The notes beneath the pieces were generated by a model that searched no databases, was not told where the DNA came from, and saw nothing but the letters and a program-made list of their open reading frames with translations. This document shows, piece by piece, positions 2,294 through 21,989 of a stretch of 64,000 bases of DNA. Origin of the DNA: Candidatus Binataceae bacterium (GTDB lineage: Bacteria; Desulfobacterota; Binatia; Binatales; Binataceae); contig JBGPUE010000010.1 of assembly GCA_041491005.1 (NCBI GenBank), positions 178 through 64,177 of the forward strand, given 5' to 3'. Positions within the stretch are counted from its first letter, which is position 1, and every line of letters starts with the position of its first letter. The translations under genes and the position numbers were made by a program.

Positions 2294-2408
2294 CCTGCGC
2301 ACGGGAAGCACGGGGTGCTCCTGCGCAAAAGATTCGTGATGCCAGTGGGCTGCGCCGAGAATTTGGAGCCGGGTCCAGCGGCCTCGAGAGAGGAGTCGAC
2401 GCTTCAAG

Positions 2409-5400: not shown

Positions 5401-6629
5401 GTCACATTCACCTCTCATTCTCCTTGACCAACATCTCGTGGGTGCCTTTCGAGGCGATGGCGTGTGGCTGCGCCGTCGTCGAAGCCAGGGTTCCCACCGT
5501 CGAGTCGTGGATGGAAGGGGAAGGCACCAACTCGCTGCTGGTTGACCCGGAGCCGAGAGCCGTCGCAGACGCTCTCATCACGCTCGTTAGAGATGCCGGC
5601 TTGCGCAAGCGGATAGCGGCCAATGGCGAAAAGCATGTAGCAAGGATCTCGTCGAGTTGGGAAGCGGCCTGTGCCCAGTTTGAAAGCATACTGCTTGACG
5701 CAGTATTCAAACAGTATCTTCCTACAGAGGGAGCGCTAATCACATCGCGAGACGGCCGCTTCGATGGGAAGATATTCTACGTACGCGGCGGGAGGCGTCG
5801 CTGGGTGCAGGATCTGGCACGGGCAGGGGAAGCGGGGTTGCGCACTACCGACGGCGTGTTGCGGCTGTCCGACGATGAGATAGCCAAGCTACCGCTGGGC
5901 GGGTACGTTCCTCGCGACTGGACGCTCGCTGATTGGAAATCGCCGCCGGCGACGGCACCGCTGCGCGAGATCGCAGCGTCAAGACTGACAGGCTCCGGCC
6001 TTGAGTTCGGAGCAGGCGACAATCCTTTCCCCACCCCATTGCACTGCGAGGTCCGCTACGTCGATAGGCTGCCACAGGAAGAGTTTGCCGCGCAGTATCA
6101 TCCAAACGAGAACATCGACGCCGTACGGCCTGATATGATCACAGGCCTTTGCCAAATGGAGGGCATTTCAAACGAGAGCGTCGACTTCGTCATCGCATGC
6201 CATGTGCTCGAGCATACGGCAAATCCGCTTCTTGCTTTGCGAACGGCATACTTGCGTCTGAAGCCGGGCGGCCAGTTGGTGCTCGTCATTCCGGACAAGC
6301 GCTATACCTTTGACCGGCAGCGCGAGCTGACTCCACTCGAACACCTGATTCTAGACTACGAGTCGCCCTCGCCTGACAGAGATCGTCAACATTGGCAGGA
6401 GTGGTACACGAAAGCCTTTCCAGTGTCTCCTGAGCAGATCGACGGATCAATCGCGTCTGCGTTGGAGCGCGACGCTGACATTCACTACCATACCTGGACC
6501 TACGAGAGTTTTACGGAAATGGTCGAATATGCGCGCCGCGACCTCGCTCCGTGGTCCGCCGTGTGGTCCCATCCTGTACGAAGAAATACCGAGGAGGGAA
6601 TCGAGTTCTACTTCGTCCTGACAAAATAG
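2409..6629 (+). CDS. 1406-aa multidomain glycan-assembly protein: SAM-methyltransferase / coiled coil / Pro-rich linker / GT4 / GT4 / SAM-methyltransferase
   Basis: N-terminal class I methyltransferase Rossmann motif VLDAGCAMGFLVE...DIVVCTEVIEHI. Coiled coil around aa 235-305 (HELNTQLGSATSALQQARGDLETVRAQEGRVRQETVRLKQALNAAERRLSD). Two GT4 (GT-B) units with EX7E-like segments ECKSELKYFEAGLLELPTVASD and VPFEAMACGCAVVEARV. C-terminal methyltransferase domain LEFGAGDNPF...FVIACHVLEHTANPLLALRTAYLRLKPGGQLVLVIPDKRYTFD. Confidence 0.8.
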   Translation: MASDRHSPSTQAAGSQGLEVKPDGIRADGGSGRQAAAMRSEIVSPDGTELSRLYNEHYFQTGCGPIPYDRTEPWLTFFGNIAEQVIRSLRPRKVLDAGCAMGFLVESFWDRGVEAWGIDISPYAISRVRPDMRPFCAVGSLTDPLQGPFDIVVCTEVIEHIPSEHERTVAENLCAATSTILFSSTPSDFAEATHFNVRPLIYWLRLFSEFGFWPDLLFDTSFVAPHAMLLRKSEQRLPEEVLVLFAETLRHKAAIHELNTQLGSATSALQQARGDLETVRAQEGRVRQETVRLKQALNAAERRLSDTFASPGWRVIERYRGWVQRQRRLRPRLFNRYERVALWALRRIAHEQRPSRQPDRGRRATDQPVTPDNDPSEPPASAIAEAQERPDQSISRFLLIISGCPGDAYRYRVEHQAEELRLLGLSVEAALFDAVDYTSVITQYSAFVLHRVPHTSGIEQFIDRAKRLGKPVIFDTDDLIFSESFIGDIKAIRDFAPDEYNLYIDGVRRYHRTLSQCAAAIVTTEPLRDRVKESFPDRPVYVNRNAVSDEMLQQADFALEHIPKTDDGLVRILYMSGTSTHNDDFAQCVPALARILEAYPNVRLMIVGHLDVPERLRSTVDRLEISPFMPWQELPALMRRADINLAPLELNNAFTECKSELKYFEAGLLELPTVASDLPAYRVAITHGENGFLCRSEQEWFETLERLALDPALRRRVGSRARTDVLARYTTRSRAPQLATALRRIFTDLRLNAQGRLSVAIVMRAPIAQTGGGYRNIFALANHLAARGHDVHLYVEAIAHLEGMNDAQIVSFCHRHFGESAAQIHVGHDQILASDIAVATNWPTAYAVTALESTRCKAYLVQDFEPDFYDRVDPAHELAERTYDLPLRKITLGKYLQKLFCERDRLPTHHIPFSIDSSIYRNLNTRPQSPVRVLFFARPGLKRRAYPVGVKALRILARACPEVEIAFYGMVEREELGFAYQHLGELSSSELAREMNRSHIHLSFSLTNISWVPFEAMACGCAVVEARVPTVESWMEGEGTNSLLVDPEPRAVADALITLVRDAGLRKRIAANGEKHVARISSSWEAACAQFESILLDAVFKQYLPTEGALITSRDGRFDGKIFYVRGGRRRWVQDLARAGEAGLRTTDGVLRLSDDEIAKLPLGGYVPRDWTLADWKSPPATAPLREIAASRLTGSGLEFGAGDNPFPTPLHCEVRYVDRLPQEEFAAQYHPNENIDAVRPDMITGLCQMEGISNESVDFVIACHVLEHTANPLLALRTAYLRLKPGGQLVLVIPDKRYTFDRQRELTPLEHLILDYESPSPDRDRQHWQEWYTKAFPVSPEQIDGSIASALERDADIHYHTWTYESFTEMVEYARRDLAPWSAVWSHPVRRNTEEGIEFYFVLTK

Positions 6630-6764
6630 AGCGCGACCGGACCTGGCAAAGAACATTCTCCGCTCGCATTCTGCCACACTCGGCGCCGATGCTTAGTTGA
6701 ATGCTCGACGTCATACGATGACCCTCGCAAGCAATCGCTTGTCACACTTCTCAAAGGATAGAGA

Positions 6765-7499
6765 ATGATAACGCGCGCGGACTACCAGCGGAATAGGTTC
6801 GCTTTCCTCACCGGTCTAACGGACGTGAAGAAAGGCCTCGGTTTGGAAATTGGCGCCGGCGATCTGCCCACGGTCCTGCCCGGCGCCGGCAGATGCCTGC
6901 ATGCAAACATGTACGGCAAGAGAGATCTGGTGACGCTCTTCAATCTTCCTGCCGAGCAGGTGCCTGAGGTCAATTACGTAGTGAGTCGGCGGCAGCCCCT
7001 GTCGGAGCAGATTGGATTGCAAACCTTCGACTACGTTTTTCTGGCCCACGTGATTGAGCATGTGGCCGACCCGATTGGTTATGTCAAGGATCTGACAAAT
7101 CTCTTGAGACAAGATGCGCTGATCGTGATGGCAGTTCCCGACAAGCGCAGAACGTTCGACAATCCCCGACCGGCAACTGCGATTGAGCATATCCTCAGCG
7201 ACTATCACGAGAGAGCCATGTACCCGTCGGTGGAACACATAATGCAGTTCGCACCGTGCATCATCGACGAGCTCAAAGGCAAAGATTCGGTCGAGCTATA
7301 CCAATGGGCACAGGCCAACCACGAAAGTGGTGCGGCAGATGTCCATTGTCACGTTTGGACAGACGAAGACTTCTTCCGCCAAGTCGACGAGATCAGACGA
7401 GCTGGTCTTTGGACCGGGCTGACAGTCGTGGCCAAATGGCCGAACAGTGGTGACTTCAACGAATTCATGATCGCGTTGAGGTACACGGGAGGGCGATAG
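6765..7499 (+). CDS. Class I SAM-dependent methyltransferase, paralogous to the C-terminal domain of the upstream 1406-aa protein
   Basis: GLEIGAGDLP...YVFLAHVIEHVADPIGYVKDLTNLLRQDALIVMAVPDKRRTFDNPRPATAIEHILSDYHE aligns colinearly with the C-terminal MT domain of ORF 2409-6629. Good SD (AAAGGATAGAG) before the ATG. Confidence 0.75.
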   Translation: MITRADYQRNRFAFLTGLTDVKKGLGLEIGAGDLPTVLPGAGRCLHANMYGKRDLVTLFNLPAEQVPEVNYVVSRRQPLSEQIGLQTFDYVFLAHVIEHVADPIGYVKDLTNLLRQDALIVMAVPDKRRTFDNPRPATAIEHILSDYHERAMYPSVEHIMQFAPCIIDELKGKDSVELYQWAQANHESGAADVHCHVWTDEDFFRQVDEIRRAGLWTGLTVVAKWPNSGDFNEFMIALRYTGGR

Positions 7500-8577: not shown

Positions 8578-11500
8578 TCATCCGAGGGTGATGCGTACTC
8601 GATGGGTCACGCCGTCGTTAGCCAGGGGGATAACGGGTCGGTTTCTCGACAGAGCTTCGCCGTCGAGCTCGATGGAGGCAATTCCGCGACTCACTCCGCG
8701 CGGGTTCTCCACCGCGATCTCATAGCGCGCAGAATGGTATAGGAAGACGATTTCGAAGCGTGGCCAAGCCTTCGGCACACACGGATCGATGACCAGGGTT
8801 GCGCCCCGCAAACGAAATCCGAGTATCCGCTCAAGGCCCACCCGATACATCCACGCGGCCGAGCCAGTGTACCAAGTCCATCCACCGCGTCCGACATGGG
8901 GAGGCGTAGCGTAGATGTCGGCACAAGCGACGTACGGTTCCACCTTGTAGCGATGAATGCCGGCGCGCGTGCTGGCGTGATTGATGGGATTCAGCATCGA
9001 GAATAGCTCGCCGGCTTTGTCTCCCTCGCCCAGCATGGCGAATGCAAGCACCGACCAAATTGCGGCATGTGTGTACTGGCCACCGTTTTCCCGGATTCCA
9101 GGTGGGTATCCTTTAACGTATCCAGGGTCGAGCGGTGCCAGATCGAACGGAGGGGTGAAGAGTAGGACCAGTTTTTCGTTCCGGCGGACGAGATATTTCT
9201 CCACCGCCGCCATCGCGGTTGCAGCGCGAGCCGGATCGGCGGCACCGGAGATCACTCCCCACGATTGCGCGATCGAATCAATTCGACATTCGGTACTCGA
9301 AGCCGAACCGAGCGGTGAGTCGTCGTCGAAGTAGCCCCGCCGGTACCAGTCGCCATCCCAGCCGTCTCGCTCAAGGGATTGCTTGAGAGCGGCCGCGTGT
9401 CGGCTCCAGTTTGCAGCGCGCGCATTCTCTCCGCGGTCATCGGCCAGGTGAGCGAAGTCGGAAAGCGTGGAATAAAGGAACCAGCCAAGCCAGATGCTCT
9501 CGCCTTTTCCCTTCTCACCGACCCGGTTCATGCCGTCGTTCCAATCGCCGGTGCCGATCAGTGGCAGGCCGTGGTGACCCACCGCGAGACTCACGTCAAG
9601 GGCCCGGGCGCAGTGCTCGAAGAGCGTGACGCGTTGCTCGGAAACCATCGGTCGAAAGTACGATTCGTGCTCGTCGGCACGGAGGGTTGGGCCTTCGACA
9701 AAGGGGACCATCTCGTCGAGGACTGCGAGGTCGCCTGTGACCTCCACATAATGGGCTGCCGCATACGGCAACCATACCCGGTCGTCGGAGATCCGGGTGC
9801 GAACCCCCTGGCCAGATGGCGGGAGCCACCAATGCTGAACGTCGCCCTCGGCGAACTGCCGCGCGGCCGCACGCAACAGATGCTCCCGCGTCACTTCAGG
9901 CGTCGATGCAGCGAGCGCCATCACATCCTGAAGCTGGTCGCGAAAGCCGTAGGCGCCGCTCGCTTGGTAAAACGCCGACCGAGCCCACACGCGGCATGCC
10001 AGTGTCTGGTAGAGCAGCCAGCGGTTCATCAGAATGTCCATCGCTCGGTCGGGTGTCTTCACTTGAACTGCGCCGAGGATCTCGTCCCATTGCCGAGTGA
10101 CCGCCCTGAAGACCGAATCCAGGTCTGTGGTTCGGTAGCGCGTGATCAAGGAAAGCGCCTCCGCCTTCGTCGCCGCCTCGCCGAGAAAGAAGACAATTTC
10201 GGCCGCACTGTTCGGCGCAAGCTGAAGCTGAGTCTGCAGGACGCCGCAGGGATCGAGACCGGCGCCGACCCGATCGGAGAGCGGCGTTGCGCTGGCGAGC
10301 GCGGCCGGAGAATCGAGCGTGCCGTTGCGGCCAACGAACTCCGTGCGGTCGCCGGTCCAAGCGCTTTGGCGTCCGGCGAGGTCGGCGAACGCCACGCGAC
10401 TACCGAAATCGTTACTCCGAGGGTTCCGCGCAAGCATCGCTCCGGTCGTCGAATCGATTTCCGTGACGACGAACGGCGCAGAAGTGATGCGGGAAGCGCC
10501 GAGCACCCACTCCACGTATGCGGTGACCGAAAGACGCCGCGATCGCGCCGAGAGATTCCGAATCTTCAACCGGGAAATCTTGATCGGATCCTCGGGGGAT
10601 ACATATTGCAGAAGTTCGAGCGAGATCCCGTGCGAAGTGTGCTCGAAGCGGCTGTAACCTTGGCCATGCCGAACGACGTACGGCGAGGTCTCCTCGCGAA
10701 TCGGCAGAGCGGTGGGACTCCAGAACGCACCTGTCGCTTCGTCACGAACATAGATCACCTCGCCCGGAGGGTCGGAGACGGGGTCGTTGGACCAAGGAGT
10801 GATCTGGTTCTCGCGGCTGCTGATCGACCATGTGTAGCCAGAGCCGGCGGCCGACACTTGGAAGCCAAACGAGCGATTCGCGATCACATTCACCCATGGC
10901 GCCGGTGTCCATAGCGCCTCGCTGAAGATTGTCACGTATTCTCGCCCGCCGGCGGCGAAGCCGCCGATGCCATTGAAAAACTCCAGGCTCGTTTGGGGCG
11001 GCGTAGCCTTCGGCTGTTCGTTCGCCGGCGCAGACTCGCGTCTCGGGGGCGGCGCGATGGCGGGTTGAGATTCCTCCAGGCGATTGACCTGCTCGGTGAG
11101 GCTTCCGTGGTGGCTGAGAAGCACCGCCCGGGCGGTGCTCTGAAGCAGGCTTCGCACCTCGACCGAGATCAGATCGGAGCGCAACACAAACACTGCTCCC
11201 CGCGCCGCTTCTCCGTCGGCCTGCGGCCGCGATTGGTTCGCACGGACCAGCGCTTCCAACGTGGCCTGCAGATCCTGATCGTAGGACGAAGGCTTTTCAT
11301 TCAGAATCACGAGATCGACGTCGAGCTGCTTCATCCGCCAGTATTCGTGGGCGCGGACCAATTGCCGAACGATCTCTCGATCCTCTGCTTCATCGATCCG
11401 GACCAACACGATCGGCAGGTCCCCGGAGATTCCGTGGGCCCATAGCGTCGAAGATCCGCGCTCGCTCCGCTTGAGCACCTCGGACGAAGGCCGCATCGTC

Positions 11501-14500
11501 GGGTTGGCATAGATGACGTGATTGGCGATGCGCTGGAAGAGGTGCGCTTCGTCGGGACTGACGCCGAGATGGTGCAGCTCCACCTGAGCCTGCGTCCAGG
11601 CCAGAGTGACCGCGCGCTCGAAGGCTGTAAAGTCGTGGTGCTTGTCTGCCAAGTCAAGCGCTTCGACTCGGGAGGGTGCGATCAGGGTCCAGAATGCGAC
11701 GCGCGCCCGGCCACCCGGCGGAATTCTTAAACGGTGGCGAAGGCTGAAGATCGGATCGAGCACGGTGCCGACCGTGTTGGAAAGCGGCCGGCCGTCGATC
11801 ACGGATATCGGCGTTCGGATCCCTCGCGCACGCCCAAGGAACGCCGCCCGGTCGGTCTCGAATTGCAAGTCGCCCACCGTCTCGCCTTCTACTACGGCAA
11901 GGTGGGCTGCCCAGACCGGCGCCTCGCCGGGCGACCGCAGCCGCCGCGTTGCCATCACAGCGCCCACGTCGGCGACGAATTCCGTCTGCACGAACAGCTT
12001 GGAGAAGGCGGGGTGCGCGGCGTCTTCCGCTGGGGGCGCCAAGACGACCTCAGCATAGGAGGTCACCTCGATTTCCCGATACCGGTTTCCAAGGTTTGAG
12101 ATCGATACGCGGCGAACCTCGGCGTCGTCCTCGGGCGAAACCGCGATCTCGAGTGTTGTCGTGAGCGTCCCGTCGCGCCTCGTGATTTCGGCTCGATCCT
12201 CGGAGAACACCACCCCGTAACTATCCGGCTCGACGCCGGTCGGTTGATATCCCGCCGACCATACTTCGCCGGTACGCACATCGCGCAGAAAAACGTACGT
12301 TCCCCAGGAGTCGCAGGTAACGTCTTCTCGCCAACGCGTGACCGCGAGGTCCCGCCAACGGCTGTATCCGGAACCCGCTGCAGTGATCATCACTGCGTAT
12401 CTGCCGTTCGAGAGAAGGTGCGTGCGCGGAATCACGTCGTGTGGCGATCGGAATCGTCGCAGCATCGGCGCAACGATCTCGCGGATGTTGGGGGCCACCT
12501 TCACTTCCTCGGCACGCGGACGCGCAACCAAAACGTCGCGCGGAGTTCGTTCTTGCAGCAAGAGTTCCGTCGCCTGCATGACTGGCGCGGCGTGAAAACG
12601 GGCGCGCATCGTTCCGTTCCGGAGAGCGTCGTCAATCGCGACCAGAGTCATCCCCTGGTGATGCGCCATAAAAGCTCGAACGACCGCCACGTCTTCGCCC
12701 TCAGGGAGGCGCGTCGGCGTGTAGTCAAGAGCCTCATAGTAGCCATAGCGGCCGAGGCCACCGGCCGCAGCGAGACGTGTGAAGTTTCGCGCCGCAGCTT
12801 TGGCATCTACCATCGCGGCGAGGGCCGTTGCGTAAGGGGCGACGACGACGTTCTCGCTGAGTCCGCGCTTGAGCCCCAGTCCAGGGACGCCAAAATTTGA
12901 GTACTGATAGGTGAGCTCCAGATCTCGCGCGCTGTAAGCCGATTCCGAGACACCCCACGGCACGCCGAGCTCGGCGCCATACTTCATTTGCCGGCGGACG
13001 ACGAGGCGATTCGACTGCGCGAGCAGGCTCCCCTCCGGTGCGCGCATCACCAACGACGGCATCAGGTACTCGAACATCGAACCCGACCACGAGATCAGGG
13101 CCGAACCGCGATCTACCGGCGTCAGGTCGCGCCCGAGCCGGAACCAATGGCGCGCCGGCACGTCTCCCTTGGCGATCGCCACGAAGCTGGCCAAGCGTGC
13201 CTCAGAGGCGAGCAAGTCATAGCAGTTTGGATCGAGGCTGCCTTCCGCGACCCGGTACCCAATCGCAAGAAGTTGCCGCGCTGGGTCGAAGAGGAAGCCG
13301 AACTCCATGGCCTCGAACATTTTCCCCGCCATTTCGCCGAGCGCCGCGAGGCGACGTTCGAGCACGCGTGCGGCGTTCGCGGAACGTTCGAAGGCGTCAA
13401 TCAGAGCGTCGGCTCGCACCACCGCGGCAGATACTCCACGGGCGTGCGGGTCAAGTTCCGATCGGTAACGCGTCAGGCCTCTGATCGCCTCTTCGCAGTG
13501 ACCCGGCAGATCGGCAATGGTCGGAACGGATTCGAACAGATAGCCGAGCACCTCCTCCAGCGGAGCGTCTCCATCTACCGCTCTCTCAGCGGCGACGAAC
13601 GCGACGTCGCCCGCGAGCTTCGCCCATGGCATCAACTGTTCGACGTCGCGCTGATGACTCAGGATCGACGCCCGCACCGCTTCTACCCAGTTCAGCACTT
13701 GGGCGCTAGCGTCGTCTCCCCGTTCCTGGTTGAGCGTCCACGCAATGTCGACGGCCGTGTGGGCGTCAAGCGCGAGCCCCGCAAGGCGCCTTCCAACATC
13801 CGCCGGAGTCGTGGCAGGACTTCGCAGCGAAGCGGTGAGAGCGTCGAGTGCGTCCTCGATATGCTTTCGAGTTACCGTTTGAGTCCGCCGATCGTCAGCG
13901 AGCAAACGCAGACACTCGCGGGCGATTTCCAGCGCGTCATCGATCCCGGCGAGCCATCCCGGCCTCGGCACTGGACCGCCGATCATCTCCCGCAAAGCGT
14001 TCTCAAGGGCGATCAGGTGTCCCGCCAGATTCCCGCTATCCACAGACGAGACATATTTGGGGTCTAGCGGACGAAGCTTCCGCGTGTCGTACCAGTTGTA
14101 GAAGTGGCCGTGGAAGCGTTCGAGTCCGCTCATCGTCGTGAGAGTCGCGTCCAACCGCTCCAATGTTTCGAGCACACCCAGCCAGCCGAAATCGTGCGCG
14201 GCGGTCACGGACAGAAGATACAATCCGAGGTTGGTGGGCGACGTCCGATGAGCCAGCATTGGGATTGGTTCTTCCTGGAAGTTGTCAGGCGGAAGCATGT
14301 GATCCTCCGCGGTGACGAAGGTCTCGAAGAAGCTCCAGGTGCGGCGGGCGATGAGCTTGAGTGTCTGCGCATCTGTCTCGGAGGGCGGATTTGGGCCCAC
14401 CATGGGCGGTGGAAGGCTCGCCCATCGCGCGACCGCCGGCGATAGCATCCACAGGATCACGAATGGAGCCGCGATCGGCCATGACCCACCCCCCAAGCAT

Positions 14501-17442
14501 GCGACGATGACGACGGCCACAACCGCAAGGGCGACACCGCCAGCCATTCGCCAATACGATCCGCGAAGATCAAGCCGGGTGCGGAACTTCGCCTGAGCGG
14601 CAGTAACCCACTCGAGCAGCCTCCGACGCCTCACGAACAGGCGGAAGAGCGTTCGCGAGATGGCGTCGGTCATCAACCACGCCTGATGCGCGAGGAATGT
14701 GACCACGAGCGCGATCTGTAAGAGAGCGACCAGGAGATCCGCGCCCACCGCGCGCAGATGGGTCCGCTTGGAGATACCGAGCCGTCGGGGCGCGATCCCG
14801 GCGAGCAGAGGCAACAGGGCAGGCACCGCGATCGTGACGAGCACGAAGGCGCTCCAGATTTTCGCGGAAAACAAGGGAAGAGACCATCCTGCCAGCAATG
14901 CCAGCAAGGCGGCCGGCGCCGACAGCGTTCGGCGCAGGTTGTCGATCATTTTCCAGCGGCCGATCAACGGAATCGCCGTGCGGCCCGGTTCGCCTTTTGG
15001 GTCGCGTCCCCGGCCGAAGATCCAGGGAAGTAATTGCCAATCGCCGCGCGCCCACCGATGCTGCCGCGCCGCGGCGACGTCATAGCGTGATGGAAACTCC
15101 TCGACCACCTCGATGTCAGAGACCAGTCCGGCCCGCGCGAAAATTCCTTCAAGCAGATCGTGACTCAGGAGCGTGCTGTCGGGAACCCGCCCTTCGAGAG
15201 CGGCTTCAAAGGCGTCCACGTCGTAGATTCCCTTACCGCTGTACGAACCCTCGCCGAAGAGGTCCTGGTATACGTCGGAGACGGCAGCCGCATACGGGTC
15301 GACGCCGCTGGCGCTCGAAAAGACACGCTGGAAAAGCGACCCGTCCCGACCGCTCGGCAACGACGGAGTAACTCGCGGCTGAAGCACCCCGTACCCCTCG
15401 ATCACGCGGCAGGAATGCGGGTCGAGGGTCGGACGGTTGAGCGGATGCGCCATCTTACCGATTAGCCGCTTGACGGCTCCCCGCGGTAGTCGCGTATCCG
15501 CGTCGAGCGTGATCACGTAGCGGACGCCGGGAGGCACGACCGGGAGGCGGGAGCCCATTGGCAGGAAGGTTGTGTCAGTCGCTCCGCGAAGCCATCGATT
15601 CAGCTCGTGTAGCTTGCCGCGCTTGCGTTCCCACCCGATCCACTTTCCCTCCCCGTCGTTCCAGATCCGCCGACGATGGAGCAGGAGGAATCGTTCCCCG
15701 TCCGGCGCCGGACCGTACAGCCGGTTCAGCCGCTCGATTCCCGCGACGGCTGCGCCGAGGAGCTTGTCGTCGCCCGGAGCATTCTCGGTGGCGCAGTCTG
15801 TCCAGTCCGAGAGGAGAGCGAAACGAAGATCGCCATCGGGAGTCGCGAGATGATGGACCTCGAGACGCTCGATCTGCTCCTCAAGTTCCGTTGGTGTCGT
15901 CAAGAGGGTGGGCACGACAACCATCGTGCGCAGACTCGACGGGACCCCGTCTCGAAGCTCCAGCCCAGGCAGTATCTTCGGGCCGAAGCAATTCATGACG
16001 CCGAGGTTCACCAGGGCCACACTCGCATCCAACGCCGGAAGGAATGCCAGGAGCGCGAGCATGACGAGAGTCCATCCGCCGACACCGGACTTTGCCACGC
16101 CGAGCAACAGTAGCGCGGAAATAAGCGTGACGACGATCGCGATGGTTCCGAGATAGCCCAGAATTCCCGCGGCCGCGTTGGCGCGAACGAGCCGTTGTCG
16201 CACCGGAACCTGAAATCCGATCTCGTTCTCGAGGGCCCGACGCCCTTTCGAGATGAGGTAATAGCCCGGCTCTTGCTCGCGGCGTGGGGTCGCCTCATCG
16301 CCGTTCACAGGATCTGCTGCCGCCCGCTTGGCGGCCACAATCGCCGATCGCGCGATATCGAGTTCCGTATGCGCCGACCCTCGCGCGAGCTCTTCGATCG
16401 CGTGCCTGTAGCGATCTCGAGTCGGGAAGTCCATTTCGGCAAAGTTGCCGCCGGCGCGGAGCACCGCATCAACGAGACTGACACTCTCGAAGAGTTCCGC
16501 CCAATCCACCGCGGACATCAGGCGCATGCTCATGATCGCATTGCGCACTGTCACGTTCATCGCGCCCTGCCTCTGATGCTCCTGACGGACGATCTCGTCG
16601 GCGGTCGTTCCCTGGGCTGCAAGGCGTTGGTCCAGCCAAAGGAGCGCTGGCGTCACGGTTGGGTCCTGATCGCGTAACCGCTGGACCAACTGAACCGCAA
16701 AGGCCGTCGGCAACGAGGTCTGATCGAAGCGTCGCAGAACAGTCTCCAGCGTCTCGCCCTTGCCATTGCCGACTCCCAATAGCCTGTCGGCTAGAGCGTC
16801 GGCCTCCTGGCGAGCCGCTCGACCCCTCACGATCCGCTCGGCCAAGCGCCGCAAATTCTCCACGAGCACGATTCGAAGCGTAATGGCAACGGCCCAGAGT
16901 TCGCCGATCGTCAGAGGCTGCACGCGCTGATAGGCCTGTAGGAACCGGGACAGCATCTGCGGATCGAAGCGGCTGTCGGTATGCGCAACGAAGGCCCAGG
17001 CAATTCCGAATACGCGGGGATAGCCTTCAAGTGGTCCTTCTGCAATTTTGGGCAACTGGCGATAGAAACCACGCGGAAGATCGTCCCGGACCTCGCGAAT
17101 TTGTTTTTCTACGACGTGGAAGTTGTCGACCAGCCATTCCGCCGCAGGCGTAATTGCGCGTTCCTCACGGATCGCTGCCGCGATCGCGCGATACGCTTTG
17201 AGCAGCACGCGACCATTTTCGCGCAGGCGTTTCAGCAGCCGTGAAGTAGTACCCGGCCTCGTCGTGACAGGCTGAGCAGCCGCAAGGCTCTCCGCATGCT
17301 GTTCGAGGCGCTCGATGCTGAACAATTCGGCGCGAATCGGCTCTTCAGCGTCTCCGGCGGTGGCCGCCAGCGGACCGTTAAGAGCTCGAAAAAATGAATA
17401 CTTCAAGTTTGCCTCTCGGCTTGGTGAACGCACCGAGAGCAA
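8578..17442 (-). CDS. ndvB: Cyclic beta-1,2-glucan synthase (NdvB/ChvB/Cgs type; GT84 glycosyltransferase region plus C-terminal GH94 glycoside-phosphorylase-like domain), 2954 aa
   Basis: Size and layout match Cgs: N-terminal membrane segments, a glycosyltransferase region (YDVAAARQHRWARGDWQLLPW) and a C-terminal GH94-like region (GGQYTHAAIWSVLAFAMLGEGDKAGELFSMLNPINH, GTGDWNDGMNRVG). The exact start is uncertain (TTG at 17442, GTG at 17433). Confidence 0.9.
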   Translation of the reverse strand: MLSVRSPSREANLKYSFFRALNGPLAATAGDAEEPIRAELFSIERLEQHAESLAAAQPVTTRPGTTSRLLKRLRENGRVLLKAYRAIAAAIREERAITPAAEWLVDNFHVVEKQIREVRDDLPRGFYRQLPKIAEGPLEGYPRVFGIAWAFVAHTDSRFDPQMLSRFLQAYQRVQPLTIGELWAVAITLRIVLVENLRRLAERIVRGRAARQEADALADRLLGVGNGKGETLETVLRRFDQTSLPTAFAVQLVQRLRDQDPTVTPALLWLDQRLAAQGTTADEIVRQEHQRQGAMNVTVRNAIMSMRLMSAVDWAELFESVSLVDAVLRAGGNFAEMDFPTRDRYRHAIEELARGSAHTELDIARSAIVAAKRAAADPVNGDEATPRREQEPGYYLISKGRRALENEIGFQVPVRQRLVRANAAAGILGYLGTIAIVVTLISALLLLGVAKSGVGGWTLVMLALLAFLPALDASVALVNLGVMNCFGPKILPGLELRDGVPSSLRTMVVVPTLLTTPTELEEQIERLEVHHLATPDGDLRFALLSDWTDCATENAPGDDKLLGAAVAGIERLNRLYGPAPDGERFLLLHRRRIWNDGEGKWIGWERKRGKLHELNRWLRGATDTTFLPMGSRLPVVPPGVRYVITLDADTRLPRGAVKRLIGKMAHPLNRPTLDPHSCRVIEGYGVLQPRVTPSLPSGRDGSLFQRVFSSASGVDPYAAAVSDVYQDLFGEGSYSGKGIYDVDAFEAALEGRVPDSTLLSHDLLEGIFARAGLVSDIEVVEEFPSRYDVAAARQHRWARGDWQLLPWIFGRGRDPKGEPGRTAIPLIGRWKMIDNLRRTLSAPAALLALLAGWSLPLFSAKIWSAFVLVTIAVPALLPLLAGIAPRRLGISKRTHLRAVGADLLVALLQIALVVTFLAHQAWLMTDAISRTLFRLFVRRRRLLEWVTAAQAKFRTRLDLRGSYWRMAGGVALAVVAVVIVACLGGGSWPIAAPFVILWMLSPAVARWASLPPPMVGPNPPSETDAQTLKLIARRTWSFFETFVTAEDHMLPPDNFQEEPIPMLAHRTSPTNLGLYLLSVTAAHDFGWLGVLETLERLDATLTTMSGLERFHGHFYNWYDTRKLRPLDPKYVSSVDSGNLAGHLIALENALREMIGGPVPRPGWLAGIDDALEIARECLRLLADDRRTQTVTRKHIEDALDALTASLRSPATTPADVGRRLAGLALDAHTAVDIAWTLNQERGDDASAQVLNWVEAVRASILSHQRDVEQLMPWAKLAGDVAFVAAERAVDGDAPLEEVLGYLFESVPTIADLPGHCEEAIRGLTRYRSELDPHARGVSAAVVRADALIDAFERSANAARVLERRLAALGEMAGKMFEAMEFGFLFDPARQLLAIGYRVAEGSLDPNCYDLLASEARLASFVAIAKGDVPARHWFRLGRDLTPVDRGSALISWSGSMFEYLMPSLVMRAPEGSLLAQSNRLVVRRQMKYGAELGVPWGVSESAYSARDLELTYQYSNFGVPGLGLKRGLSENVVVAPYATALAAMVDAKAAARNFTRLAAAGGLGRYGYYEALDYTPTRLPEGEDVAVVRAFMAHHQGMTLVAIDDALRNGTMRARFHAAPVMQATELLLQERTPRDVLVARPRAEEVKVAPNIREIVAPMLRRFRSPHDVIPRTHLLSNGRYAVMITAAGSGYSRWRDLAVTRWREDVTCDSWGTYVFLRDVRTGEVWSAGYQPTGVEPDSYGVVFSEDRAEITRRDGTLTTTLEIAVSPEDDAEVRRVSISNLGNRYREIEVTSYAEVVLAPPAEDAAHPAFSKLFVQTEFVADVGAVMATRRLRSPGEAPVWAAHLAVVEGETVGDLQFETDRAAFLGRARGIRTPISVIDGRPLSNTVGTVLDPIFSLRHRLRIPPGGRARVAFWTLIAPSRVEALDLADKHHDFTAFERAVTLAWTQAQVELHHLGVSPDEAHLFQRIANHVIYANPTMRPSSEVLKRSERGSSTLWAHGISGDLPIVLVRIDEAEDREIVRQLVRAHEYWRMKQLDVDLVILNEKPSSYDQDLQATLEALVRANQSRPQADGEAARGAVFVLRSDLISVEVRSLLQSTARAVLLSHHGSLTEQVNRLEESQPAIAPPPRRESAPANEQPKATPPQTSLEFFNGIGGFAAGGREYVTIFSEALWTPAPWVNVIANRSFGFQVSAAGSGYTWSISSRENQITPWSNDPVSDPPGEVIYVRDEATGAFWSPTALPIREETSPYVVRHGQGYSRFEHTSHGISLELLQYVSPEDPIKISRLKIRNLSARSRRLSVTAYVEWVLGASRITSAPFVVTEIDSTTGAMLARNPRSNDFGSRVAFADLAGRQSAWTGDRTEFVGRNGTLDSPAALASATPLSDRVGAGLDPCGVLQTQLQLAPNSAAEIVFFLGEAATKAEALSLITRYRTTDLDSVFRAVTRQWDEILGAVQVKTPDRAMDILMNRWLLYQTLACRVWARSAFYQASGAYGFRDQLQDVMALAASTPEVTREHLLRAAARQFAEGDVQHWWLPPSGQGVRTRISDDRVWLPYAAAHYVEVTGDLAVLDEMVPFVEGPTLRADEHESYFRPMVSEQRVTLFEHCARALDVSLAVGHHGLPLIGTGDWNDGMNRVGEKGKGESIWLGWFLYSTLSDFAHLADDRGENARAANWSRHAAALKQSLERDGWDGDWYRRGYFDDDSPLGSASSTECRIDSIAQSWGVISGAADPARAATAMAAVEKYLVRRNEKLVLLFTPPFDLAPLDPGYVKGYPPGIRENGGQYTHAAIWSVLAFAMLGEGDKAGELFSMLNPINHASTRAGIHRYKVEPYVACADIYATPPHVGRGGWTWYTGSAAWMYRVGLERILGFRLRGATLVIDPCVPKAWPRFEIVFLYHSARYEIAVENPRGVSRGIASIELDGEALSRNRPVIPLANDGVTHRVRITLG

Positions 17443-17518
17443 GCCGCGCAGGGTCGCGAGAGGTCAGACAATCTGGCCGGGCTGCGGTCCTGGAATCATT
17501 CCCGCGAGGTCGGCATCC

Positions 17519-17806
17519 TTACCGATTGCCAGTTCGGTTCTTGGCTCCGAAGCTCGATTCGCGGGGTTTGGCTTCGTTCACCTTGATGTTCCTGCCCTTG
17601 AGCTCGGTATCGTTGAATTGCTGTATCGCCTTGGCAGCGTCGTCCGCACTTGCCATTTCGACAAAGCCGAAGCCCTTGGATTGGCCGGAGACCTTATCCG
17701 TTATTACAGCCACACTTTGAACCTGACCTACCTGAGCGAAAAGTTCTTCGAGGTCGCCCTGAGTAACCGAATAGGCCAGATTGCCTACGTACAATTTGCT
17801 GGGCAT
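17519..17806 (-). CDS. Small RNA-binding protein with a single RRM (RNP-1/RNP-2) domain
   Basis: RNP-2 LYVGNL and RNP-1 KGFGFVEM. 95 aa. Strong SD GGAGGG 8 nt upstream of the ATG. Same strand as cgs and 76 bp upstream of it. Confidence 0.85.
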   Translation of the reverse strand: MPSKLYVGNLAYSVTQGDLEELFAQVGQVQSVAVITDKVSGQSKGFGFVEMASADDAAKAIQQFNDTELKGRNIKVNEAKPRESSFGAKNRTGNR

Positions 17807-17845
17807 TTATTGCCCTCCATAAGCTGTGCCGGGGAGTTCTCGAAC

Positions 17846-17875
17846 AGAAAACCCGGGCTTATTCCCGGGTCTAGA
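17846..17875 (-). terminator. Rho-independent-terminator-like hairpin (ACCCGGG-aataag-CCCGGGT followed by TTTTCTGTT), oriented on the minus strand
   Basis: Read on the minus strand: acccgggaataagcccgggttttctgttcg, a 7-8 bp GC stem, 6-nt loop and U-tract. It lies about 45 nt upstream of the RRM gene start, so it is either a terminator for an unannotated minus-strand transcript or a leader attenuator. Confidence 0.35.
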
Positions 17876-18502
17876 TGAAAGGAACAATCCAAGCGTTACA
17901 ACGCGCAGCGTATGCTTTTCGGGCCGCTAATGATACGGACACAAGCTTCGTGGCCAGTCGTGTCCCCTTTGATGCGAAATGTTCAACCGTGTTGGAGTCT
18001 CCTTGCATCTACTGAGAATTCCGAAAGCCAAGGGTCTTGCAATTCGCCGCTCCTGCGCTTGGCAAGATAGAGGTTCGTCGACGACACAATGTGCCTGACG
18101 GTGACCCGCCCCTTGGCCGGCGGTGCACACAAGACGATGAAGGTCGCGGTTACGGTCGGCGATTTCACCGCAGCTTCATCGCGGCCGCTGCTGGTCGACC
18201 CGATGGGCGCCGAGCAGTATGCGTTCTAGCCGGCGGGGGTCGCCCCGCCCCACACCGGTTGCTAGGCGACGACCCAACTGTTGCAAGTTGCGGCGCCGTA
18301 GGAAACGGATCTCCGCTTTGAGCAGGCCGGCGAGTAAAACTCAAGGGGCTCTCAGGAACCCATCTCCTCTACCGGGCGCTCTGGTAGTCGAGAGACAAAC
18401 GCTGGCCGCTCGGCTGCGGGCTGTCAGCGCCCCAGCTTCTCTGTGCGGGACGCAGGTAACCGTGTAGTTTGACTCGAAGTCTGTCCGTGAAGGAGACAAG
18501 TC

Positions 18503-19183
18503 ATGGCGGCGGCAGCATCGAGCACACCATCGCAGATCATCCGGATCAGCGAACGCCAATGGGAACAAATGTCACCCACGATCAAATTAAAGAGTCTGTG
18601 GTCCGATCCCGCAACCAAACGGCGCGCACAGTTAACTCGCTTCGAGCCCGGCGCGGTGTTGCCGATGCATCGTCACATCGGCGACGAACTGCTCTACGTA
18701 ATCGAGGGAGCAATTTCTGACGAGTCCGGGACCGTTCTTGCAGGCAGCGTGGGCTATCGACCCAACGGATGCGTGCATTCGGTAAGCAGCAAGACCGGCG
18801 CTACCGTGTTCGCGATCATCACCGGCGGCATCGAGCCGGCATCCGAAATCGGCAACGCGCCGCGCTCACAAACCCTCGTGCTGAGTGACATAGCGTGGGT
18901 CGACGCGATGGCGGGCGTACGTCAGAAGCCGATTTGGACCGATCGCGAGACGAAGCGGCGAGGCCTTTTGGTGCGCTTTGAACCTGGCGCCAGGCTTCCG
19001 CTTCATCGGCACGTCGGGGACGAACTGATCTTCGTCATCGAAGGCTCAAACGCGGACGAGTCCGGTGAGGTGATGACCGGTGACATGAACTACCGGCCCA
19101 ACGGATGCGTACATAGCGTTATGAGCAGGAATGGCGCGACGGCGCTGGCGCTAGTAACTGGCGGCGTCGAAATGCTCGAATGA
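18503..19183 (+). CDS. Tandem-cupin protein (two ChrR-like cupin_7 domains), no anti-sigma zinc domain
   Basis: Two colinear copies: ...RFEPGAVLPMHRHIGDELLYVIEGAISDESGTVLAGSVGYRPNGCVHSV... and ...RFEPGARLPLHRHVGDELIFVIEGSNADESGEVMTGDMNYRPNGCVHSV... Confidence 0.7.
   Translation: MAAAASSTPSQIIRISERQWEQMSPTIKLKSLWSDPATKRRAQLTRFEPGAVLPMHRHIGDELLYVIEGAISDESGTVLAGSVGYRPNGCVHSVSSKTGATVFAIITGGIEPASEIGNAPRSQTLVLSDIAWVDAMAGVRQKPIWTDRETKRRGLLVRFEPGARLPLHRHVGDELIFVIEGSNADESGEVMTGDMNYRPNGCVHSVMSRNGATALALVTGGVEMLE
18575..19133 (+). repeat. Intragenic tandem duplication (two ~260-bp cupin-coding units) within ORF 18503-19183
   Basis: The protein-level repeat (aa ~25-112 vs ~123-210) is about 55% identical. 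Confidence 0.55.
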
Positions 19184-19197
19184 GCCGATGGCATTGG

Positions 19198-19986
19198 TTA
19201 CGCGTTGCGGATCGTGAGACCTCCATCGACCGGAATGATCGCGCCCGTGAGGTAGGAAGCCGCCGGAAGACATAGGCTGAACGTGATGTGGGCGACCTCC
19301 TCCGGGTAACCGTAGCGCTTCAACGCGGTCCTGCGCTTGCCAAAAATCGTCTTGTGCTCTTCGGGAATCGCGTCAGTCAGTGCCGTCCGAATCGGTCCGG
19401 GGCAAATGCAATTGACCGTGATCCCTTCCGGGCCGAGGTCTACGGCCAATGCACGAGTGAGCCCGATCACCCCGGTCTTGGCAACCACGTAAGGACTGTC
19501 TCCAGGGGTAGCGCCGAGACCTTCGGTCGAGGCGATATTGACGATTCGCGCCGCGTCGGACTTTCTTAGATGTGGAAGCGCCGCCCGGACCAGCTGCTGC
19601 TGCGCCGTCAACAAGCCGGCGATCGTTCTGTCCCAGACTTGATCGTAGTCCTCCGCGTCGAGCGGACGAAAGCCGCCAAATCCGGCGTTGTTGATCAGGA
19701 TGTCGAGTCTGCCGAAGCGATCGGCGATTTCCGCGACGACGCGTTTGATCTCAGCGTGGTCCATCACGTCGAGGCGCCAAGCCTCCGCTCGCCCTCCTTC
19801 CGCTTTGATTTCCTCAACGACCCGCGCGACTCCCGGCTCGTTGATGTCAGTGGCCGCGACGAGCGCGCCTTCCTGAGCGAACACGTGAGCCGTGGCGCGT
19901 CCCATACCGCTCGCCGCGCCTGTAACCATTACTGCACGCCCTTTTACCGAGCGGTCTAGTTTCCTGATCGCGTCCATATCCGTCAT
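19198..19986 (-). CDS. Short-chain dehydrogenase/reductase (SDR)
   Basis: TGAASGMGRATA glycine-rich NAD(P) motif, NNAG, catalytic Y..K region (YVVAKTGVIGLTRA). Confidence 0.85.
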   Translation of the reverse strand: MTDMDAIRKLDRSVKGRAVMVTGAASGMGRATAHVFAQEGALVAATDINEPGVARVVEEIKAEGGRAEAWRLDVMDHAEIKRVVAEIADRFGRLDILINNAGFGGFRPLDAEDYDQVWDRTIAGLLTAQQQLVRAALPHLRKSDAARIVNIASTEGLGATPGDSPYVVAKTGVIGLTRALAVDLGPEGITVNCICPGPIRTALTDAIPEEHKTIFGKRRTALKRYGYPEEVAHITFSLCLPAASYLTGAIIPVDGGLTIRNA

Positions 19987-20102
19987 CTCCTCGTTCTGCT
20001 TGAAAAGCCATGGCGCAGAGAAACGCTCGCGTGCCGCAGACGCAGACCCATGCTATCGCGCTGCCGCCGCAGACACTCGACTACCGGTCGTAGAGCTTCT
20101 TC

Positions 20103-21128
20103 TCAACCCGGCTGGGGCCACACCAAGGGGACGCTGGTGGCCAGCCACTTCACAAGAGCCGCATTCACTTCGAGGGGCTTTTCCTGCGCCATCCAGTGGC
20201 TCGTGCGAAGCGTCTCTTCTGTGAGCTTGCGACAGTAGGTGCGCATGGGCTCCGCGAGTCGCGAATGCGTGCATTCGCACACATAGTCGTATTGAGCATT
20301 GAGGAATAAGACCGGCATGTCGAGGTAGCCATCATTGCGGGCTGCTTTTGCGTAGCCAGCATTCGCGGCGTGGTTCATATACCACGATGATGGACCAAAG
20401 AAACCGTTGCGTTCCAGCGCGGAGACATAAACGCTCAAGTCTTCCTCGCTGACAACGTCCTGGTCTCGCGGCAGATCGGGAATCTCGCCACCACCCAGCA
20501 TACCGTGACTGCGACGCGCCGTAGCCGTGATTGCGCGCTGCCCCTCGCCTTCTGGATTCCCCTTGCGGAAGATGAGTTTCATGAACCGGTAGACGTTAGC
20601 ATCCATCGGTGCGATGGCCTCGGCGAAACTCTCTTCGTAATAGCGCATGTAATCCCATTGGCCGGCGGGGAATTCCTTCTCGGGATAGAGATTCCGATCG
20701 ACCAAGGTGAGCGTATGGTCAAGACCACGCTCAATCGTGTAGTACGGAACACACAAGTTCGCGACCGAATTGCAGCGGTCGGGGTGATGACTGGCCATAT
20801 TCCACACGACCGGGCTACCCCAGTCATGTCCTACCCATACGGCTCTGTCTCTTCCGACGGAATCCAGCAACTCCAGCATGTCGCGCACAATATGTTCCTG
20901 TGCGTAGTCGCCGCGTTGACAATAGACGGAAGAACGCCCATAGCCGCGCATGTCGGGCGCGATGGCGCGAAAACCTAACGCAGCAAGGGCTGGAAGTTGA
21001 TGTCGCCAGCTAATGGACAGCTCGGGCCAGCCGTGGATGAAGACAATGAGCGGCCGATTTTCAGGTCCCGCAGCGAGATAGAAGGTAGTATGCCTAGCCG
21101 TTTTGGCCGTGTGCTCTGTGATTGACAC
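20103..21128 (-). CDS. Alpha/beta-hydrolase, epoxide-hydrolase-like
   Basis: VFIHGWPELSISWRHQLPALAALGFRAIAPDMRGYGRS (HGWP motif), nucleophile elbow GHDWGS. Confidence 0.8.
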   Translation of the reverse strand: MSITEHTAKTARHTTFYLAAGPENRPLIVFIHGWPELSISWRHQLPALAALGFRAIAPDMRGYGRSSVYCQRGDYAQEHIVRDMLELLDSVGRDRAVWVGHDWGSPVVWNMASHHPDRCNSVANLCVPYYTIERGLDHTLTLVDRNLYPEKEFPAGQWDYMRYYEESFAEAIAPMDANVYRFMKLIFRKGNPEGEGQRAITATARRSHGMLGGGEIPDLPRDQDVVSEEDLSVYVSALERNGFFGPSSWYMNHAANAGYAKAARNDGYLDMPVLFLNAQYDYVCECTHSRLAEPMRTYCRKLTEETLRTSHWMAQEKPLEVNAALVKWLATSVPLVWPQPG

Positions 21129-21353
21129 GCTGGTGGCTCCTCTTCATTGGCGATCGTAAGATGCGCCGAACGCTTGAGTTGAAATAGGCTTCACTATTTG
21201 GTGGCGCCACTTCTTGCGCGAGCCGACTGCGTCCCTGGAGGGTTCGTTGGACGCGTTTAGGACGCGGTGGTCGCGGCTTCGATTGTGGATTTCGACAACG
21301 CACTCATCGGATAAATCAGGTATACTTCGCCCGGTGTCTTTGACGCAAAGCAT

Positions 21354-21848
21354 GTGACACCGATCGCGACAGCACAGGGTGATGCCATGGGGGAGCGGGG
21401 TATTTCGGGTAATCTCGGGTTTTGTTGGCTCGCTATAATGATGGTTCTGTTGGTTCAGGGTCGAGCGGCGGCTCAGTGGACCGGCCGCGACGGTTGGGTC
21501 GAAGAGCCCGCTGCCAAATCGCTCAACGTGGAAGGAGACCCGGGTCATGCGTACCTGGACCCCGCGTCCGTCCGCCGCGGCGATGACGGACTGGTATATT
21601 TCAACGAAAGCTCCAACGTGTCCCGACCGGGGGAAATAGGCAACGTGGGTTTAATGAAGGATGCCTACGATTGTGCGAAGAACATCAAGTACATGTGCGT
21701 AGGGGTTGGGGATTGGCGCAACGATCTGAAGAGCACGATCAACGCCGCCAATGACCCCGCTTTGCCAGTTTACCGCAAGTACCTGTGCGGCGACGCGAAA
21801 CCCGGCGAGGACAGCCCGAGCTACCTCCGGGAGCATCAACAGCCGTAG
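21354..21848 (+). CDS. Hypothetical secreted protein (signal peptide, 4 Cys)
   Basis: Hydrophobic N-terminal segment GFCWLAIMMVLLVQGRAAAQ. No recognisable domain. The start codon is ambiguous. Confidence 0.4.
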   Translation: MTPIATAQGDAMGERGISGNLGFCWLAIMMVLLVQGRAAAQWTGRDGWVEEPAAKSLNVEGDPGHAYLDPASVRRGDDGLVYFNESSNVSRPGEIGNVGLMKDAYDCAKNIKYMCVGVGDWRNDLKSTINAANDPALPVYRKYLCGDAKPGEDSPSYLREHQQP

Positions 21849-21989
21849 GGCCAGATCAGCCGACGGGTATGTATGCGGCTGCGGCACTTGAAGTGTAACG
21901 CGCAACACTTCGCAGCATCCGTCACCTCAGACCTTTACGCCGGCAGTTTGGTGATGCAAAGCTCTCGCAATCAGAAATGAGGAGGGTCC

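Follow-up and report, generated by a model that had tools for sequence, protein, structure and literature searches.

Several small bacterial proteins built on an RNA recognition motif (RRM) have been described. The Bacteroides RRM-1 proteins RbpA, RbpB and RbpC occur in several copies, have 5′ untranslated regions (UTRs) of 122–155 nt with feedback control, and are involved in cold adaptation (PMC13370968; PMC11697453). Their post-transcriptional effects are global and include polysaccharide loci, and rbpB is found in an operon with unrelated genes (PMC13370968; PMC11697453). The cyanobacterial Rbp1, Rbp2 and Rbp3 are cold- or stress-related RRM proteins (PMC9333190; PMC12232666). RtmR of Vibrio fischeri, a membrane-embedded member of the RRM family, regulates the SYP polysaccharide biofilm and is not encoded beside its target (PMC12265689). 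The cspA gene of E. coli has a long 5′ UTR that combines a thermosensor with autoregulation (PMC13370968). Nothing relevant that links a cyclic glucan synthase to RRM or other RNA-binding proteins was found in the literature searched. Here we analyze a locus in which a gene for a single-RRM protein immediately precedes, in the same orientation, a gene for a cyclic beta-1,2-glucan synthase (cgs). The locus lies on the minus strand of a 64,000-nt stretch of contig JBGPUE010000010.1 from a Candidatus Binataceae bacterium, and this whole stretch is referred to as the window.

Our analyses make it fairly probable that the locus goes back to an inherited string of three genes, with the RRM gene first and cgs last, that the middle gene encoding a small basic protein was deleted, and that cgs of the window is now expressed by read-through from the RRM unit. 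The loci used for comparison are given as L numbers. Scanning of species-representative genomes with the Cgs N-terminus yielded 80 cgs loci with 58–75% identity, which belong to Binataceae, Acidobacteriota, several proteobacterial classes, Chloroflexota, Nitrospira and others, and 84 RRM loci were gathered through RRM similarity. The intact strings described below emerged from the contexts of the closest homologues of the small protein. L001–L004 are metagenome contigs identical to the window locus. From the upstream to the downstream end, the locus consists of the following features:

17907–17935, minus strand: putative promoter element of the RRM unit, TATCAT-17 nt-TACGCT, with the same pattern in 25 RRM loci
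17807–17906, minus strand: conserved 5′ leader of the RRM gene, about 100 nt (alignment A1)
17519–17806, minus strand: gene for an RRM_1 single-domain RNA-binding protein, an open reading frame (ORF) with an ATG start, 95 amino acids (aa)
17523–17524, minus strand: junction at which 289 bp present in intact relatives are missing (blastn of the window against L172)
17464–17523, minus strand: 3′ relic of the small basic protein gene, GKDADLAGMIPGPQPGQIV and stop, comprising the last 19 codons with no start codon of its own (frame translation, tblastn)
17407–17463, minus strand: 57-nt spacer from the relic to cgs with the ribosome-binding site GAGAGG, orthologous to the 58–59-nt spacers of L006, L172 and L175–L177
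8578–17406, minus strand: cyclic beta-1,2-glucan synthase gene (cgs/ndvB/chvB type), 2942 aa, starting at TTG 17406

The RRM protein matched PF00076 (RRM_1) over the full length of the profile (E-value 9.4e-24; 83.5 bits with a cut-off of 20.7; residues 5–75 on profile positions 1–70) and the NCBIfam model NF058537, "RNA-binding regulator" (108.1 bits with a cut-off of 100; residues 5–82). Its translation contains the RNP2 motif LYVGNL at residues 5–10 and the RNP1 motif KGFGFVEM at residues 44–51, and many solved RRMs are homologous to it, including the bacterial structures 7jly, 2ki2 and 7qzp. The family is large and highly conserved, with 7995 of 8000 scored protein clusters matching at E ≤ 1e-10. 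The top matches shared 85–93% identity, and those that were named came from Candidatus Binataceae. The closest RRM protein is that of L085 (93% at the aa level). The statement in the first-pass annotation that RRM proteins are uncommon in bacteria is thus overstated for this habitat. The subfamily is multi-copy and found mostly in unrelated contexts. RRM paralogues also cluster frequently, with 2–4 copies, divergent or tandem, within a few kb (L094, 7877–10270; L109, 40–3454; L088, 8073–8920; L096–L098; L106).

Cgs of the window is collinear over its full length with the Agrobacterium cyclic beta-1,2-glucan synthase (PDB 8rf0/8rf9; 2531 bits), and its membrane glycosyltransferase, cyclization domain and GH94 phosphorylase are all three arranged collinearly. 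The cyclization domain matched 8wy1 at 3.5e-130, and C-terminal GH94 structures were also matched. The Pfam domains are two GH94 supersandwich domains, a GH94 catalytic domain and Glycoamylase, of which the supersandwich and catalytic matches had E-values of 8e-171 and 6.7e-124. A glycosyltransferase motif of the Q-x-x-R-W type, RQHRWARGDWQ, was read in the translation only. The identities and the shared orientation of the two genes had been recognized in the first-pass annotation, but its length of 2954 aa and gap of 76 nt were those of the longest ORF, which begins at TTG 17442; they are corrected here to 2942 aa and 112 nt. As judged from sequence features, the true start is almost certainly TTG 17406 and not TTG 17442. 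The ribosome-binding site GAGAGG is located 5 nt upstream of TTG 17406, Cgs homologues align from residue 1 of the protein that starts there, the cgs starts of L006, L172 and L175 are orthologous TTG codons, and the gene calls on L001–L004 have cgs beginning 112 nt after the RRM stop. Other cgs genes repeatedly start with TTG or GTG-AAG behind a ribosome-binding site of the AAAGGC type. It should be noted that many Cgs N-terminal homologues (P0123, P0128, P0141 and others) have just 400–680 aa and lie on contigs of 0.07–1.6 Mb. They probably represent frameshift-split long-read assemblies rather than a genuine family of short proteins.

The 3′ flanks of many RRM homologues were found to contain small ORFs that start with MEKRRRE and end with ...KDADLxxMxPGPQPGQI(I/V). 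These ORFs encode a small, well conserved basic protein of 53–58 aa, aligned as MEKRRREQxRKQKQxDKQQRR...KDADLxxMxPGPQPGQII (alignment A3), for which no Pfam or NCBIfam model was found. A profile of the small protein yielded 390 matches at E ≤ 1e-3 and 34 at E ≤ 1e-10 among 1.84 billion representatives. Intact small genes are located, for example, at 9781–9942 of L006, 1159–1320 of L172, 1107–1274 of L175, 10446–10613 of L087 and 5819–5992 of L104. In the window, only the relic remains, in the +1 frame relative to the RRM gene and with 84% nt identity to the intact small gene of L006. Searches by tblastn with intact small proteins found the relic in the window and in L085/L086. At the small gene-cgs junction of L006, window positions 17520 to 17403 align with 77% nt identity.

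The deletion that produced this relic was delimited by blastn, in which window 17937–17528 aligned with L172 560–970 and window 17524–17383 with L172 1260–1403. Lost in the window are the last ~10 RRM codons, the RRM terminator and a spacer of ~160 nt that contains a GATAAT box, as well as codons 1–34 of the small gene. Short CGG/GG repeats border the junction. The RRM stop codon TAA (17521–17519) was formed from the small-gene codons GGT-AAG, and the tail of the RRM protein was cut to GAKNRTGNR. We considered, from tblastn, whether this tail is out-of-frame DNA of the small gene and rejected it, because blastn against L172 sets the junction at 17524/17523, so that the tail is native and only the stop comes from small-gene codons. 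The identical junction is present in L085/L086. Given that RRM dS (i.e., synonymous divergence) between the window and L085 is 0.26 with the identical junction, the deletion is old.

All three genes are under purifying selection. The ratios of nonsynonymous to synonymous divergence (dN/dS) are 0.08–0.16 for the RRM gene relative to its relatives and 0.16–0.27 for the small gene. For cgs, whose 8.8-kb ORF has no internal stop, they are 0.24 against L175 and 0.17 against L006. As cgs of the window is undisrupted and under purifying selection despite the old deletion, it is functional, and hence expressed, in the deleted configuration.

The intact form of the string was identified in L172, L175, L176 and L177, which come from different samples. 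In these loci, the leader (covariance model R1, see below) and the RRM gene are followed by a hairpin with a T-run, the small gene (53–55 aa in the string), 58–59 nt and cgs, of which aa 1–174 (84%) were seen in L172, aa 1–1104 (87%) in L175, aa 1–829 in L176 and aa 1–596 in L177. In L006, one of the two cgs loci closest to that of the window, cgs follows an intact small gene at a distance of 58 nt, and no RRM gene is present within 10 kb upstream. In the neighbor-joining tree of Cgs, the window, L175/L176 and L006 form one clade whose sister group consists of Binataceae-type loci without the arrangement, which fits a single origin of the string. Its clade probably comprises uncultured soil bacteria of the Binataceae. 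We initially considered the adjacency unique to this genome, because the 80 cgs loci lack an upstream RRM gene, no cgs was seen at the three contigs of the closest Cgs homologues and the RRM gene of L085 is followed by an amidohydrolase gene; the relic and the intact strings overturned this view. The question of whether the pairing is conserved in related genomes thus receives a divided answer. In L172 and L175–L177, both genes are present, separated by the small gene and a terminator, which goes against the refuting condition of the first-pass annotation that no related genome shares the pairing, but these loci all belong to one narrow clade of Cgs.

Within this clade, the string was repeatedly eroded. 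L173 has the order RRM-small-cgs, in which an apparent internal deletion of cgs joins aa 119 to aa 2080 (1015–1479). In L178–L180, the RRM and small genes are followed by an ORF that retains just the first 64–70 residues of Cgs, and a 174-aa ORF with the first ~70 Cgs residues recurs in two samples (L178, 766–1290; L179, 645–1169). L174 contains a relic of the leader and an intact small gene, while the RRM coding region is gone and no cgs is present. L109 has, behind its second RRM gene and a strong terminator (L109b), Cgs similarity confined to a 33-aa N-terminal relic; its cgs is a frameshifted 55-codon stub at 3556–3730. In L085, the RRM gene, the small-gene relic and half of the spacer are followed by another gene, and homology with the window stops at 17433, inside the 57-nt spacer; cgs was lost in this lineage. 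In total, cgs decayed or was lost in five lineages of the clade (L173, L178/179, L109b, L085 and L174). By our account, the RRM-small pair would be a widespread autonomous core to which cgs was attached downstream once, to be lost most often within the clade. The 289-bp deletion between the CGG/GG repeats, which the window lineage shares with L085/L086, left cgs of the window 112 nt downstream of the RRM stop codon.

How cgs is transcribed may be deduced from what was deleted. A terminator-like hairpin is found directly 3′ of the RRM stop in 21 of 27 close homologues, and the window, L085 and L086 have none. In intact relatives, the RRM gene is thus probably monocistronic, with a terminator after it, and the small gene and cgs would form a two-gene operon, because the spacer between them would hardly accommodate a promoter, whereas upstream of the small gene a GATAAT box is present. 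The RRM-small spacers of the trio loci (L172, 1001–1158; L173, 622–787; L175, 947–1106; L178, 374–538; L174, 1364–1466) share the conserved boxes GAGCGCTGATT and CCAAGC, and in most of these loci GATAAT, a −10-like hexamer, lies 20–35 nt before the small gene. The small gene and cgs probably have their promoter region in this spacer with GATAAT, and precisely this segment was deleted in the window. The window has lost both the terminator and the sole conserved promoter-like box, and yet cgs is under selection, from which we infer that transcripts begun at the RRM promoter read through the leader and the RRM gene into cgs. Expression of cgs would then follow the control of the RRM gene, which may be cold or feedback control by analogy with the Bacteroides rbp genes and E. 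coli cspA. Scanning of the RRM-cgs gap with sigma-70 and intrinsic-terminator consensus sequences gave no match to either, which bears out the earlier remark that no obvious terminator is present there. The co-transcription suggested in the first-pass annotation therefore gains from the deletion of the separating terminator, but the juxtaposition is a derived accident and intact relatives have a terminator after the RRM gene. A conserved hairpin hiding the cgs ribosome-binding site (CUCUCGG/CCGAGAG) was also considered and rejected, as the fold z-score was 0.6 and the changes in L173 were not compensatory.

Alternatively, cgs of the window may have an independent promoter, cryptic or undetected, whether in the RRM coding region, in the relic or in the 57-nt spacer, and its neighborhood may have no transcriptional consequence. 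The consensus promoter scan is uninformative for this phylum, whose promoters the sigma-70 consensus may not suit, weak −10-like strings were noticed in our reading of the relic, and the terminator-like hairpin of the leader followed by UUUUCUGUU might stop many RRM transcripts early. Against such a promoter, the deletion took the only conserved promoter-like box (i.e., GATAAT) upstream of the small gene and cgs, and the relic and spacer together provide ~115 nt without conserved promoter features. Moreover, the relic precedes a different gene in L085, an amidohydrolase gene (1060–1372) at a distance of 9 nt, which also suggests dependence on upstream transcription. We consider an independent promoter distinctly unlikely.

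The amidohydrolase of L085 has an orthologue in the window at 21981–22994 on the plus strand (87% aa identity), 4.5 kb away and inverted. We conjecture that one inversion of 17433–21981 would interconvert the two arrangements, which the geometry fits; no inverted repeats were found at the breakpoints 17433 and 21981.

A different question is whether the string is a selected functional unit, in which cold or osmotic co-regulation, a speculation of the first-pass annotation, or control of cgs mRNA by RNA-binding proteins, maintains the adjacency. At least six lineages that differ in sequence and come from different samples carry the string, and cgs was kept after the deletion had placed it under the RRM unit. 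The linkage of the small gene to cgs and the spacer length are retained at dS 0.88, at which all the other neighbors have changed and none is shared. Regulation of polysaccharides by RRM proteins also has precedents in RbpB (PMC11697453) and RtmR (PMC12265689). The broader distribution is, however, difficult to reconcile with such a unit. An RRM gene in the co-oriented upstream position was found at none of the 80 species-level cgs loci, an RRM gene anywhere within 10 kb at three of them and never adjacent, and the small gene upstream of cgs at one (L006). Conversely, 83 of the 84 RRM loci have no cgs similarity, with L109 being the exception, and eight intact RRM-small units are without cgs (L087, L091, L094, L099, L101, L104, L105 and L109; tblastn). 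In intact strings, a terminator parts the RRM gene from the small gene and cgs, and each member was lost in some lineages where others persist. L006 and L174 lack the RRM gene, the window and L109b lack the small gene, and cgs is affected in the five lineages given above. No other neighbor in the window is shared with the 80 cgs loci or the trio contigs, and no indication of a specific action of the RRM protein on cgs mRNA was seen in this comparison. A selected functional unit is thus unlikely in our view. A more elaborate proposal is that the RRM protein, the small protein and Cgs form a stress-responsive module, in which the RNA-associated proteins tune the synthesis of cyclic glucan, an osmoprotectant, at the post-transcriptional level and in which the deletion hard-wired cgs to the RRM leader. 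We rate it as improbable, somewhat below even an independent cgs promoter.

It had also been suggested that the RRM protein serves as a dedicated RNA chaperone for transcribing or translating the long, GC-rich cgs mRNA. The adjacency itself and the general reputation of small RRM and Csp proteins as chaperones (PMC13370968) are all that favor this suggestion. The cgs genes of 80 other species are just as long and yet lack an adjacent RRM gene, the RRM subfamily is multi-copy and occurs mostly in unrelated contexts, and cgs of L006 is intact with no RRM gene in the 10 kb upstream. The suggestion is thus unsupported, and we regard a dedicated chaperone as very improbable indeed.

Several points weigh against the derivation of the locus from a deleted string with read-through into cgs. 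Transcription of cgs could start at a cryptic promoter that lies within the RRM gene or within the relic, and the small gene-cgs linkage up to dS 0.88 could reflect a selected functional link and not mere inheritance. The Cgs tree was built by neighbor joining from the N-terminal 820 aa without bootstrap, the trio contigs are mostly short, and full-length cgs was verified in the window and L006 only. L173 is a Logan contig, so its internal cgs deletion may be an assembly artefact. Finally, the promoter-like motifs are our own reading of the alignments and were unflagged by the sigma-70 scan.

The RRM unit itself begins with the putative promoter element, for which the alignments can be read as a family pattern of TATCAT-17-TAnnnT. 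Homology between the window and every relative starts at 17937–17943 (blastn), and the flanks upstream of the unit are unrelated among the window, L085/86, L172, L175, L174, L109 and L087/88. The repeated, highly similar RRM modules may drive this shuffling of flanks at 17937–17943. Within the leader, 17869–17864 pairs with 17857–17852 to form the hairpin CCCGGG-AAUAAG-CCCGGG, which is 95% paired and has compensatory changes at three pairs. An invariant hairpin (GGGCA...UGCCC; 17815–17811 with 17805–17801) spans the Shine-Dalgarno sequence and the AUG and reaches the first codons. With the covariance model R1, the window leader scored 116 bits, and 42 other RRM-gene leaders were matched (34 + 8), whose contexts are unrelated; loci with this type of leader upstream of RRM genes are L085–L117, L156 and L172–L180. 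Elsewhere in 1.57 Mb of cgs loci plus the window, R1 had no match besides the window copy, and no Rfam match was obtained for 16800–18600 at E ≤ 1. An alternative, anti-terminator pairing of the 3′ arm of the hairpin with a downstream CCCGG was considered and rejected, as it showed no covariation and paired no better than shuffles. As judged from the alignments, the RRM unit with its leader is autonomous, given that the same type of leader precedes 42 other RRM genes in unrelated contexts and that the upstream flanks differ among the lineages compared above. The leader is a candidate for an autoregulatory or thermosensing element.

Three further features of the window were noticed. A 46-aa ORF at 18089–18229 on the plus strand, divergent from the RRM promoter, is a gene call on the identical JGI contigs and has no Pfam match on record. 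At 18503–19183 on the plus strand, a ChrR-type cupin protein is encoded whose two Cupin_7 halves represent an internal tandem duplication, with which direct DNA repeats 336 nt apart fit. Convergent to cgs, a polysaccharide-modification cluster at 197–7499 on the plus strand encodes a 698-aa double GT2 protein, a 244-aa methyltransferase and a 1406-aa protein in which methyltransferase, GT1 and WsaF-like rhamnosyltransferase domains are fused; this cluster might modify a glucan or another envelope glycan.

Taken together, the apparent partnership between an RNA-binding protein and a glucan synthase shrinks to a clade-specific string and a probable read-through operon made by a deletion, which is a modest curiosity and not a general rule. 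If read-through occurs as proposed, the locus would be a natural experiment in which a stress-protein gene, through its promoter and leader, has captured a large biosynthetic gene. Were the module proposal true, it would provide the first bacterial link of an RRM protein to envelope glucan or osmoadaptation and a function for a new family of small proteins. The more durable by-product is the structured leader of a very abundant RRM subfamily of soil bacteria, which has no Rfam counterpart. The second is the small basic protein, a frequent downstream partner of RRM genes for which neither Pfam nor NCBIfam has a family. The two are relevant to the unsettled role and control of bacterial RRM proteins.

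Compared to the known systems, Cgs of the window resembles Cgs/ChvB/NdvB of Agrobacterium, Brucella and Sinorhizobium in being full-length collinear, with a glycosyltransferase region (in which a putative QHRW motif can be read), a cyclization domain and GH94. It differs in belonging to a different phylum and in the position of its gene behind an RRM/small-protein unit. The RRM protein, like the cyanobacterial Rbps, has a single RRM of ~80 aa with a short C-terminal tail, which in its relatives is rich in Gly/Arg as in class I Rbps. In contrast to the cyanobacterial Rbps, the tail in the window is shortened to the residues left by the deletion, and the genomic context is unrelated. RtmR provides a precedent for control of exopolysaccharide by an RRM protein, while the protein of the window is a soluble 95-aa RRM. 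As with cspA, the gene for a small nucleic-acid-binding protein lies behind a long, conserved and structured leader that includes the ribosome-binding site, although the protein fold and the leader sequence are unrelated, and thermosensing is an analogy only. The Bacteroides Rbps differ from the window protein in several respects: they belong to a phylum other than that of the window, which is probably Binatota, and the window leader is without a counterpart in Rfam or among other described leaders. The frequent partner is a 53–58-aa basic protein and not a Csp or a DEAD-box helicase, and the neighbor is a glucan synthase and not a polysaccharide utilisation locus. Nevertheless, like the Bacteroides Rbps, the protein encoded in the window is a small single-RRM member of a multi-copy subfamily that passes the NF058537 cut-off and is encoded behind a long leader.

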